From: a virus
Taxonomy: Duplodnaviria; Caudoviricetes
Strand: one strand, 5' to 3'
Length of the DNA: 64,000 nt
IMG/VR virus record: IMGVR_UViG_3300035520_001860
Location: 69,587-133,586 of that record
Shown piece by piece: positions 56,649 to 57,414 of the stretch. Numbering within the stretch: position 1 is the stretch's first letter; every line of letters starts with the position of its first letter. A model generated the notes under the pieces. It saw only the letters and a list, made by a program, of their open reading frames with translations. It searched no databases and was not told where the DNA came from. The translations under genes and the position numbers were made by a program.

Positions 56649-56668
56649 AGAAAGGAAAACATAAGAAA

Positions 56669-56764
56669 ATGACATCAAGAAATTTAATTAACATCTATTC
56701 ATATTCATACTATTACTGGTACAACAATACCAGTTTATTAGCATGCAATAGAATATTGAGTTAA
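56669..56764 (+). CDS. Putative Tyr/Trp-rich leader peptide
   Basis: GAAAGGA RBS; MTSRNLINIYSYSYYYWYNNTSLLACNRILS; followed by the conserved hairpin. Confidence 0.7.
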   Translation: MTSRNLINIYSYSYYYWYNNTSLLACNRILS

Positions 56765-56783
56765 TTAAATCAGTCAGATGAAT

Positions 56784-56844
56784 AGTACATATTATAAAGT
56801 ACCTAAGGTCATTCATATGACTTTAGGTACTTTTTGTGTGTATT
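56784..56844 (+). terminator. Attenuator-like terminator hairpin, copy 1
   Basis: aaagtacctaaggtcat-tcat-atgactttaggtacttt followed by T-rich sequence; homologous to 60109-60171. Confidence 0.8.
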
Positions 56845-56882
56845 AAAAATTATAGGATTTTTAATGAAAGGACAGTGAGTAT

Positions 56883-56999
56883 ATGGAATCAGACTATGAT
56901 TATTGGTGGCAAATAACACTAAATAAAACTACATACGATGAAAATATTAGTTATTACATGCAAAAGTGTGCATATGATAGCTTATTAAAGTGCACTTAA
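56883..56999 (+). CDS. Second small Tyr/Trp-rich ORF
   Basis: GAAAGGA RBS; MESDYDYWWQITLNKTTYDENISYYMQKCAYDSLLKCT. Confidence 0.6.
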   Translation: MESDYDYWWQITLNKTTYDENISYYMQKCAYDSLLKCT

Positions 57000-57049
57000 A
57001 ATTAAGTAAAAACACTGAAAAATAATTTAAAACTTTTTGAAAAAATCTG

Positions 57050-57078
57050 TTGACAAAATAAAGTTTGTGAGATATAAT
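57050..57078 (+). promoter_or_regulatory. sigmaA promoter of the Tyr/Trp tRNA cluster
   Basis: TTGACA-17-TATAAT. Confidence 0.85.
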
Positions 57079-57123
57079 ATATTTGTAAGTAAGAGATAAG
57101 TAAATACAAGTATAAAAAAACAT

Positions 57124-57204
57124 GCGTCGGTGAGCGGAATTGGTATCGCAGCTGGCTGTAACCCAGTGGCTTATGCATTCCTGGTTCGAGTCCAGGGCGG
57201 CGCA
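57124..57204 (+). tRNA. tRNA-Tyr(GTA)
   Basis: ctggc-tGTAa-cccag region giving loop ctGTAac; extended variable arm; GGTTCGAGTCC; A73. Confidence 0.85.
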
Positions 57205-57249
57205 CTAGATATACATATTTTTAGTATTTTATACTTTTGTAATTTATAT

Positions 57250-57337
57250 TGGCAGGTATGCAAATGGCTGAAGCAAGCGGTCCGTAAAACCGTGACCTAT
57301 GTGGTAAACAATGTGGGTCCAAATCCCACCCTGTCAA
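57250..57337 (+). tRNA. tRNA-Tyr(GTA), atypical (C33, TCC T loop)
   Basis: tggcagg/cctgtca acceptor; gcggt-ccGTAaa-accgt; long variable arm; A73. Confidence 0.65.
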
Positions 57338-57343
57338 CTTTGT

Positions 57344-57414
57344 AGGTTCTTGGTGTAACGGTAGCACGGTCAGCTCCAACCTGACAGATGCGAGTTCGAC
57401 TCTTGCAGTTCCTG
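57344..57414 (+). tRNA. tRNA-Trp(CCA)
   Basis: gtcag-ctCCAac-ctgac; G73; two U.U mismatches in the acceptor stem. Confidence 0.85.

Follow-up and report, generated by a model that had tools for sequence, protein, structure and literature searches.

Why does a short open reading frame (ORF) rich in tyrosine and tryptophan codons, followed by a hairpin with a run of T residues, stand ahead of the genes for the tRNAs that read these codons? The question is raised by a locus at 56651-57415 (+ strand) of the window, i.e. the whole 64,000-nucleotide (nt) stretch of DNA analysed here, which is the last 64 kb of the 133.6-kb IMG/VR virus record IMGVR_UViG_3300035520_001860 (Duplodnaviria; Caudoviricetes). 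The window is A+T-rich and contains 15 tRNA or tRNA-like genes and one transfer-messenger RNA (tmRNA). The locus is referred to below as the Tyr/Trp module, its first small ORF as ORF1 or the leader, the hairpin with the T run as T, the second small ORF as ORF2 and the promoter in front of the tRNA genes as P2. With a probability estimated at about 55%, the module is a ribosome-mediated (leader-peptide) transcription attenuator, which would report the speed at which Tyr and Trp codons are decoded and would read into the tRNA cluster.

The codon content of ORF1 is the starting point. ORF1 occupies 56669-56764 (31 codons and a TAA, the UAA being at 56762-64), and its translation is MTSRNLINIYSYSYYYWYNNTSLLACNRILS. 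The codons 10-18 (56696-56722) spell the putative sensor run Y S Y S Y Y Y W Y, which consists of 6 Tyr, 1 Trp and 2 Ser over 9 codons; its TAT/TAC and TGG codons are read by the tRNAs encoded downstream. ORF1 starts straight after a gene ending at 56648 and is preceded by a Shine-Dalgarno region, gaaaggaaaac, at 56651-56661. A leader ORF with a ribosome-binding site (RBS) and a start codon is kept in homologous positions in three related lineages, L062, L075 (TTG start) and L175, where AGGAG or AAGGA is found 7-8 nt ahead of the start codon. An initial annotation, made by a model from the letters and a list of the ORFs, had described the architecture of the module, and each of its features was found where it had been placed, the 6 Tyr and 1 Trp in nine codons included.

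To judge the role of chance, all stop-free stretches in six frames were scanned over the whole record or genome of each leader. IYSYSYYYWY was the single richest Tyr/Trp 10-mer of the 133.6-kb record (7/10, the runner-up having 6); the record's only Tyr/Trp tRNA cluster follows about 430 nt downstream. A second leader in the window is the longest run in the record drawn from F, H, D, E, V and I (15 residues). Every leader, also in the relatives, was the top or joint-top run for its own amino-acid set in its genome. The length or count compared with the next best run was 18 vs 7 and 18 vs 11 for the two leaders of the contig G006, and 7-8/10 vs 6.

The second leader belongs to a module at 59908-60500, which is a paralogue of the Tyr/Trp module. 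The homology of the two includes the RBS and CAATAGAATA, the hairpin, in which two changes are compensatory, and the promoter preceded by its A/T block. The same design was detected in four other lineages, which were reached through the neighbouring genes, the hairpin pattern and ORF2: L062 on G006 (a 268-kb IMG/VR contig, seen as L062 and L074), L075 (a 66.7-kb metagenome contig), L076 (an 11.9-kb JGI contig) and L175 (a Logan contig). A further hit, L077, is the window's own phage with 99.99% identity. Direct searches were less productive. Megablast of 55500-62200 against deposited phages gave no match, and nothing was found in viral contigs with a strict hairpin pattern or with a tRNA-Tyr pattern. 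The 91-amino-acid (aa) upstream neighbour had no relatives among viral contigs, only the promoters matched when module B DNA (see below) was compared with five related records, and a B-core pattern search matched only G006. An arrangement in G003 (L052), a more distant relative, was not counted as the same device: a tRNA gene follows a small acidic ORF after 7 nt, without a terminator. At G003:18041-18236 and 18986-19217, a promoter, an RBS, a small acidic or Lys/Glu-rich ORF and its stop codon are followed by a tRNA, again with no terminator; tRNA-Glu lies 7 nt past the ORF stop and tRNA-Lys overlaps it. This may be a looser or a different arrangement.

Four module types were distinguished, and the leader run matched the downstream tRNA set in every module found: Tyr/Trp (A), Phe/His/Asp/Glu/Ile with or without Val (B), Gln/Met/Cys/Arg (C) and Thr/Ser/Asn (D). 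The order of leader, hairpin with T run, promoter and tRNAs is common to all of them, as is the A/T block upstream of P2. The type A leaders of the relatives are IYSYAYYYWYYSY in L062, IYSYAYQYWYYSY in L075 and SYQHYYYWY in L175, each ahead of Tyr and Trp tRNAs; across these and the window Tyr is preserved despite TAT/TAC changes. In type B, FEFDIEHFEVHDEVI stands ahead of Phe, His, Asp, Glu, Glu, Val and Ile tRNAs in the window and L076, and FEFDIEHFDIHDEHI ahead of clusters without tRNA-Val in L062 and L075. Val in B leaders is limited to the lineages with tRNA-Val in the cluster. The module B of L062 and L075 also has a second leader-hairpin unit, FDEHIEHFDDHFI...; in L075, a consensus promoter and a 66-aa Cys-rich ORF are located between the first unit and the second leader (L075:2386-2680, minus strand).

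The match extends to isoacceptors. The leader QQQMQCRRRMCQQRCRQM precedes Cys, Gln(ctg), Arg(tct), Met, Arg(cct), Arg(acg) and Gln(ttg) tRNAs. All three Arg anticodons are accounted for by its Arg codons (AGA, CGA, CGC and AGG), and both Gln anticodons by CAA and CAG. The leader TSTSSSTNNSSSSTNTNS precedes Asn, Thr, Ser, Thr, Ser and Ser tRNAs, and its AGT and TCA/TCG codons cover both Ser anticodons. The hairpins of these two module types are unrelated. Just upstream of the Thr/Ser/Asn leader, at G006:253590-253845, a consensus promoter precedes a structured RNA whose end is a T-arm-like GGTTCGAATCC; this RNA was not called a tRNA by ARAGORN. The initial annotation had regarded the module at 59908-60500 as an internal replicate, in which the sensor peptide is rewritten for another tRNA set; that proposal holds, and the relatives extend it to the four types. 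Because of the match in the relatives' modules and the top genome-wide ranks of the runs, leader composition is, at the sequence level, tied to the tRNA set beyond reasonable doubt, and the ORF1 region is very likely a sensor of Tyr/Trp decoding.

Is the peptide or the RNA conserved? Within ORF1, a hairpin H1 (56715-56734, ACTGGTA-caacaa-TACCAGT, then TTTATT) was found in the three-lineage consensus fold and is readable in L175. The H1 loop of the window is one base shorter than those of L062 and L075, and the conserved bases past H1, CAGTTTATT...TGCAATnGAATA, are read in another frame in the window than in the two relatives. Judged from this alignment, it is the RNA and not the peptide tail that is conserved in the Tyr/Trp leader. 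By the same comparison, the C-terminal NRI common to the two leaders of the window is nucleotide conservation, since the 1-nt indel in the H1 loop shifts the frame while the downstream bases stay conserved. An H1-like hairpin, built of distal cognate codons and followed by a U-rich stretch, is present in every module type. These hairpins resemble the pause hairpin of classical attenuators, and H1 is a candidate for such a role.

These observations bear also on another explanation of small ORFs with variable cores, namely that they are highly expressed minigenes, trapping tRNAs as peptidyl-tRNA like lambda bar, or precursors of ribosomally synthesised and post-translationally modified peptides with hypervariable cores. 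The short ORFs, the variable cores between conserved flanks and the one copy with a consensus promoter agree with it. We consider it barely plausible: no modifying enzymes are encoded nearby, the flanks are conserved as nucleotides and not as peptide, and trapping the tRNAs that the phage itself supplies makes little sense. The lambda bar minigenes are 2-3 codons long.

In the consensus fold, the untranslated leader forms a long imperfect stem that begins near codon 4, ends at the stop codon and is capped by H1; T comes next. Region 1 (56682-56692) is the 5' strand of the outer helix closing the untranslated leader, and its partner is 56759-56769 in both the minimum-energy and the consensus folds. 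This closing helix carries one compensatory change (columns 15/119 are CG in two sequences and UA in one). Region 2 (56759-56783) lies around and just past the stop codon; its first part, 56759-69, pairs with region 1, and 56772-83 is the predicted 5' strand of an antiterminator formed with the terminator tip.

T has the features of an intrinsic terminator and lies between the leader ORF and the tRNA genes. The whole structure (56784-56844) consists of a lower stem, 56784-92/56836-44, and a main stem, 56796-812/56817-33, with 17 bp, a loop of 4 and a T5 run at 56831-35; its folding energy is about -31 kcal/mol. The gap between the stop codon of ORF1 and the main stem is 31 nt. The bases 56811-22 of T double as the 3' strand of the predicted antiterminator. 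Three compensatory pairs among lineages were counted in T, and such changes are present in the outer helix, T and the lower stem. Because the lower stem has compensatory changes and its 3' strand is positioned beyond the T run, comparative evidence indicates that the read-through RNA is under selection.

Two complementarities quoted in the initial annotation are exact, ctattcat at 56695-702 with atgaatag at 56778-85 (8/8) and 56772-83 with 56811-22 (11/12), and their fates differed. The former pairing was absent from the minimum-energy and consensus folds and is not conserved; the conserved closing helix is 56682-92/56759-69 instead. The related idea, that pairing maintains the TCA Ser codons, was not borne out either: in G006 and L075 the second Ser is replaced by Ala (GCA), and L175 has yet another motif. 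The latter pairing is the antiterminator 56772-83:56811-22, for which the support from the nascent-transcript folds and from covariation is described below.

How would such a leader work? In the favoured reading, an attenuator in front of the tRNA cluster, transcripts would enter from the upstream operon, because there is no promoter ahead of ORF1. No + strand promoter scoring at least 10/12 was found there, in agreement with the earlier impression that the leader lacks a dedicated one. In the untranslated leader, the long stem (56682-92/56759-69 and the inner helices) would form with H1 at its tip, and T would end transcription. When charged tRNA-Tyr or tRNA-Trp is short, the ribosome would halt in 56696-56722 and open the leader stem. 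The segment 56772-83 would then be free to pair with 56811-22, i.e. with the T loop and the upper 3' strand. T would form late or not at all, and RNA polymerase would continue into ORF2 and the tRNA cluster. With fast decoding, the ribosome at the UAA (56762-64) would cover the start of the segment, T would form and transcription would end.

Can the terminator be switched by the position of the ribosome? The folding check with masked ribosome positions, suggested in the initial annotation, gave an answer with two sides. At equilibrium, T was formed at every ribosome position, the outcome under which the attenuator was to be given up. The E. coli thr and his attenuators, taken as controls (terminators of 14-16 bp with A and U tracts), likewise had T formed at all positions. 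Since these textbook attenuators behave alike, equilibrium masking does not discriminate.

The equilibrium fold is also what would be seen without any regulation, where ORF1 is an ordinary small gene or no gene at all and the hairpin is a plain terminator that shields the tRNA promoter from transcripts arriving from upstream. T is strong and prevails at equilibrium in every state, and P2 alone can account for tRNA expression. Such an explanation is nevertheless very unlikely, as it leaves too much unexplained: the four unrelated leader cores, which spell their own tRNA sets down to isoacceptor codons and rank first genome-wide, the tracking of tRNA-Val by Val, the tail conserved as RNA in two frames, and the lower stem past the T run kept by compensatory change.

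The folding of the nascent transcript was determined as the ensemble probability of the T pairs, P(T), when 4-10 nt of the T 3' strand had emerged, with the ribosome either stalled mid-run or located at the stop codon. The p values were obtained from dinucleotide shuffles of the differentially covered segment. The controls were E. coli thrL and hisL; trpL was left out, as the terminator finder chose a wrong terminator. With 6-8 nt of the 3' strand out, the P(T) of the Tyr/Trp module was 0.02-0.15 with a stalled ribosome vs about 0.9 with the ribosome at the stop codon. The stall-dependent delay of T exceeded that of the shuffles with p=0.04 in the Tyr/Trp module of the window, compared with 0.02 for thrL and 0.03 for hisL. 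A delay with p<=0.08 was detected in 10 of the 12 units, spread over all four module types. The competing structure in the nascent Tyr/Trp transcript was 56772-76/56818-22 with 56778-83/56811-16, and with the ribosome in the Tyr run the antiterminator 56772-83:56811-22 was the predicted structure up to 56824. In each of the four A lineages, the terminator tip of the same lineage was the best or nearly the best partner of the spacer (-10.8 to -14.9 kcal/mol), and spacer and tip co-vary in three sequence versions.

Several results weigh against an attenuator of this kind. No ribosome-dependent delay of T was detected in L075 (p=0.87) and L175 (p=0.40), and the candidate segment of L175 starts 11 nt past the stop codon, outside the reach of a terminating ribosome. 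The antiterminator is weak, about -11 to -15 kcal/mol vs -29 to -39 kcal/mol for T, and lasts only until about half of the T 3' strand is out; to this is added the persistence of T at equilibrium. Two tests of low power, the fragment energy and the stop-proximal duplex against shuffles (the latter with p=0.116 for the Tyr/Trp module), also count on this side; with thrL as the control their values were 0.53 and 0.066, with hisL 0.17 and 0.49. The phage's translation initiation factor IF3 points to no particular host in which transcription-translation coupling could be judged, its homologues being 30-42% identical and spread over many phyla. Two further points of this kind, P2 and ORF2, are taken up below. 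An alternative, ribosome-position-dependent pairing that excludes T is predicted by these models but not secure.

The weakness of the antiterminator raises the possibility that the codon run is a sensor whose output is not antitermination by alternative pairing, the stalled ribosome stabilising or exposing the leader RNA instead. The outputs that may be considered are a 5' stabiliser against exonuclease, RNase III cleavage of the 27-bp extended hairpin in the read-through RNA, a hand-over to the phage tmRNA/SmpB, or the module B unit of promoter P1, leader and T acting as a stand-alone reporter of decoding capacity. The last option would suit module B, where the leader has its own perfect promoter driving the leader and T only, as is the case also in L062 and L076; the hairpin with the conserved lower stem is long enough for a double-strand RNase substrate, a tmRNA is encoded by the phage, and the two lineages that fail the onset test fit as well. 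We hold such outputs to be improbable, as no specific target or output can be named, and neither the ribosome-dependent delay of T nor the covariation of spacer and tip is predicted by them.

P2 is the first of the remaining points that weigh against the attenuator. An attenuator requires that no strong promoter stands between it and the controlled genes, and P2, TTGACA (57050)-17-TATAAT (to 57078), lies exactly there, with 12/12 consensus matches of the sigma-70 type; together with its A/T-rich upstream block it spans 57013-57078. A consensus promoter between T and the tRNAs is present in every module. Since P2 sits between T and the tRNAs, the tRNA genes do not depend on read-through, and the regulated share could be of any size. 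We read P2 as a source of basal supply and the attenuator as a regulated increment: P2 would provide tRNA independently of the switch, and the attenuator would add demand-dependent transcription from upstream. A parallel is given by amino-acid operons, which have internal promoters. P2 had been under-weighted in the initial annotation. Its overall interpretation is therefore supported in part: the replicate scaffold and the antiterminator stand, and the pairing of ctattcat with atgaatag and the Ser-codon idea do not.

The tRNA genes downstream of P2 are tRNA-Tyr(gta) at 57124-57205, a second tRNA-Tyr(gta) of 89 nt at 57250-57338 and a tRNA-Trp(cca) of 73 nt at 57343-57415. The first and the third were accepted by both ARAGORN and Rfam; the second was called by ARAGORN only and is below the gathering score of the Rfam tRNA model. 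In the relatives, the tRNA-Trp(cca) genes at L062:1484-1573 (90 nt) and L075:4191-4274 (84 nt), both on the minus strand, have a long variable arm and a D arm like that of the adjacent tRNA-Tyr. They resemble class II Tyr tRNAs that bear a CCA anticodon and a discriminator G, whereas the Trp tRNA of the window is an ordinary one of 73 nt. The acceptor stem of the first Tyr tRNA of the window is the same as that of the L075 Trp tRNA. These sequences suggest anticodon switching between Tyr and Trp tRNAs.

What, then, strictly needs the read-through of T? ORF2 (56883-56999, MESDYDYWWQ..., 38 codons) has its RBS at 56866-72, the two spanning 56866-56999, and can be reached only through read-through of T. 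Its N-terminus, MESDYDYWW, is invariant in four lineages, with the Ser codon TCA in the window and AGT elsewhere. Because the sequence is invariant despite this switch of codon family, codon comparison points to selection on the ORF2 N-terminus as a peptide. Common to the ORF2s of modules A, B and D is M-[E/D]-x-D with a stretch rich in cognate residues after it. Their lengths are 38, 40 and 56 residues, the C-terminus is variable and the longest runs into P2. In both type C modules ORF2 is an untranslatable remnant, while the leader, T and P2 are retained. ORF2 matched no known family, and no second terminator was found between ORF2 and P2. Being likewise rich in cognate codons, ORF2 has no role in the attenuator model, and this is the second of the two points left over above. 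Control of ORF2 by erm/cat-type translational attenuation was considered and rejected: its RBS is 22 nt past the hairpin end (56844) and is unpaired in the folds.

It may be asked whether the switch is real and ORF2 itself is the regulated product, so that leader, T and ORF2 would form a small operon induced by slow Tyr/Trp decoding. The peptide would then act elsewhere: it could, for example, address P2, influence how tRNAs are matured or charged, or counter a tRNA nuclease of the host. ORF2 is indeed the only gene that strictly needs read-through, P2 being downstream of it, and the good RBS, the invariant N-terminus and the shared M-[E/D]-x-D speak in its favour. A protein needed under slow Tyr/Trp reading would hardly be expected to open with five such codons, and the remnant in both type C modules, the variation of length and C-terminus and the lack of a known family argue likewise against it. 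We regard this explanation as unlikely.

Upstream of P2, a stretch similar to AAGTCCCACTCCAACT(T/C)TGCT has been preserved, also in modules whose ORF2 is noncoding. It was located at L076:4595-4625, at G006:173745-173775 and at the 3' end of the module B ORF2 (window ~60315-60340). The stretch may constitute a separate DNA or RNA element.

A broader version of the favoured reading is possible, and we put it forward tentatively, at less than even odds. The phage clade would run a per-operon homeostat of decoding capacity, in which each tRNA block has a translated probe testing every tRNA, isoacceptors included, and any shortfall raises the whole block above its basal promoter. The shortfall could be caused by host shut-off, by codon mismatch or by a host anticodon nuclease. 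ORF2 would be a second probe or a peptide effector.

How does the Tyr/Trp module compare with known systems? Leader-peptide attenuation is a textbook mechanism of amino-acid biosynthesis and a few other operons. The enterobacterial attenuators (thrL for Thr and Ile, ilvL for Ile, Val and Leu, and trpL, hisL, pheL and leuL) are the closest in working principle. Shared with them are a short translatable ORF with a regulatory codon run and a stem closing the untranslated leader; the terminator is likewise strong and has tracts of A and of U, and a segment close to the stop codon is predicted to compete with it. In the nascent-transcript test the module behaves like thrL, and some of the phage modules are likewise multi-amino-acid. 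The differences are considerable. The genes downstream are phage tRNA genes and not biosynthetic enzymes, so that the product would correct the supply of tRNA and not of amino acid; a consensus promoter and a second small ORF are present between the terminator and the genes; and the predicted competitor would engage T at its tip (loop and upper 3' strand) and not along the whole 5' strand.

The pheM leader of E. coli pheST represents leader-peptide attenuation of the phenylalanyl-tRNA synthetase, responsive to charged tRNA. Compared by description only, pheM is like the module in being an attenuator on a component of the decoding apparatus, and differs in that it belongs to a host gene, a synthetase and one amino acid. 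T-box riboswitches are also terminator/antiterminator leaders answering to the state of a specific tRNA, but they bind uncharged tRNA directly and without translation. A T-box, with its specifier loop and antiterminator bulge, was tried as a candidate and rejected: no Rfam match was obtained in the window at the gathering score, nor in 56500-57200 at E up to 5. The Rfam leader families gave no match to the module. In the literature, no paper describing leader-peptide control of tRNA genes was found.

Further observations were made around the modules. A GIY-YIG-like gene follows the Tyr/Trp tRNAs at 57502-58764. Around the tRNA modules (51185-55062 and 58801-59883), a Sir2-family protein, two HipA-like kinase-domain proteins and a GGDEF diguanylate cyclase are encoded according to their Pfam labels. 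A G+C-rich segment with two short hairpins (60576-60680) is located between tRNA-Phe and a 117-aa ORF (60693-61046). This ORF, which lies inside the tRNA cluster, had no Pfam match; 41 relatives of it were found in large viral contigs. Elsewhere in the window, at 30531-30607, 31704-31777 and 61864-61938, ARAGORN reported tRNA-like genes with four-base anticodons (gcgc, tttc) and a tRNA with the anticodon tta, which reads UAA; the tta tRNA has its own promoter, and the last two of the three were accepted by Rfam as tRNA. The region 30200-32453 has two consensus promoters, then tRNAs with G+C-richer spacers of 150-600 nt, and then the tmRNA with the tag ADNSRPVAIAA. No Rfam family was found in these spacers at the gathering score.

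If the favoured reading is true, the virus gauges, one codon at a time, how well the infected cell can decode, and tunes its own tRNA supply. If the homeostat is also real, leader-peptide attenuation would have been shifted from amino-acid to tRNA sensing, adding a new layer to the contest of phage and host over tRNA. The finding bears on why large phages carry tRNAs, on how they cope with host defences that cleave tRNA, and on the origin of the grouping of tRNA genes in operons. The leaders would provide a read-out, from sequence only, of the tRNAs that the phage treats as one unit, and as compact multi-input sensors they could be reused in synthetic circuits.

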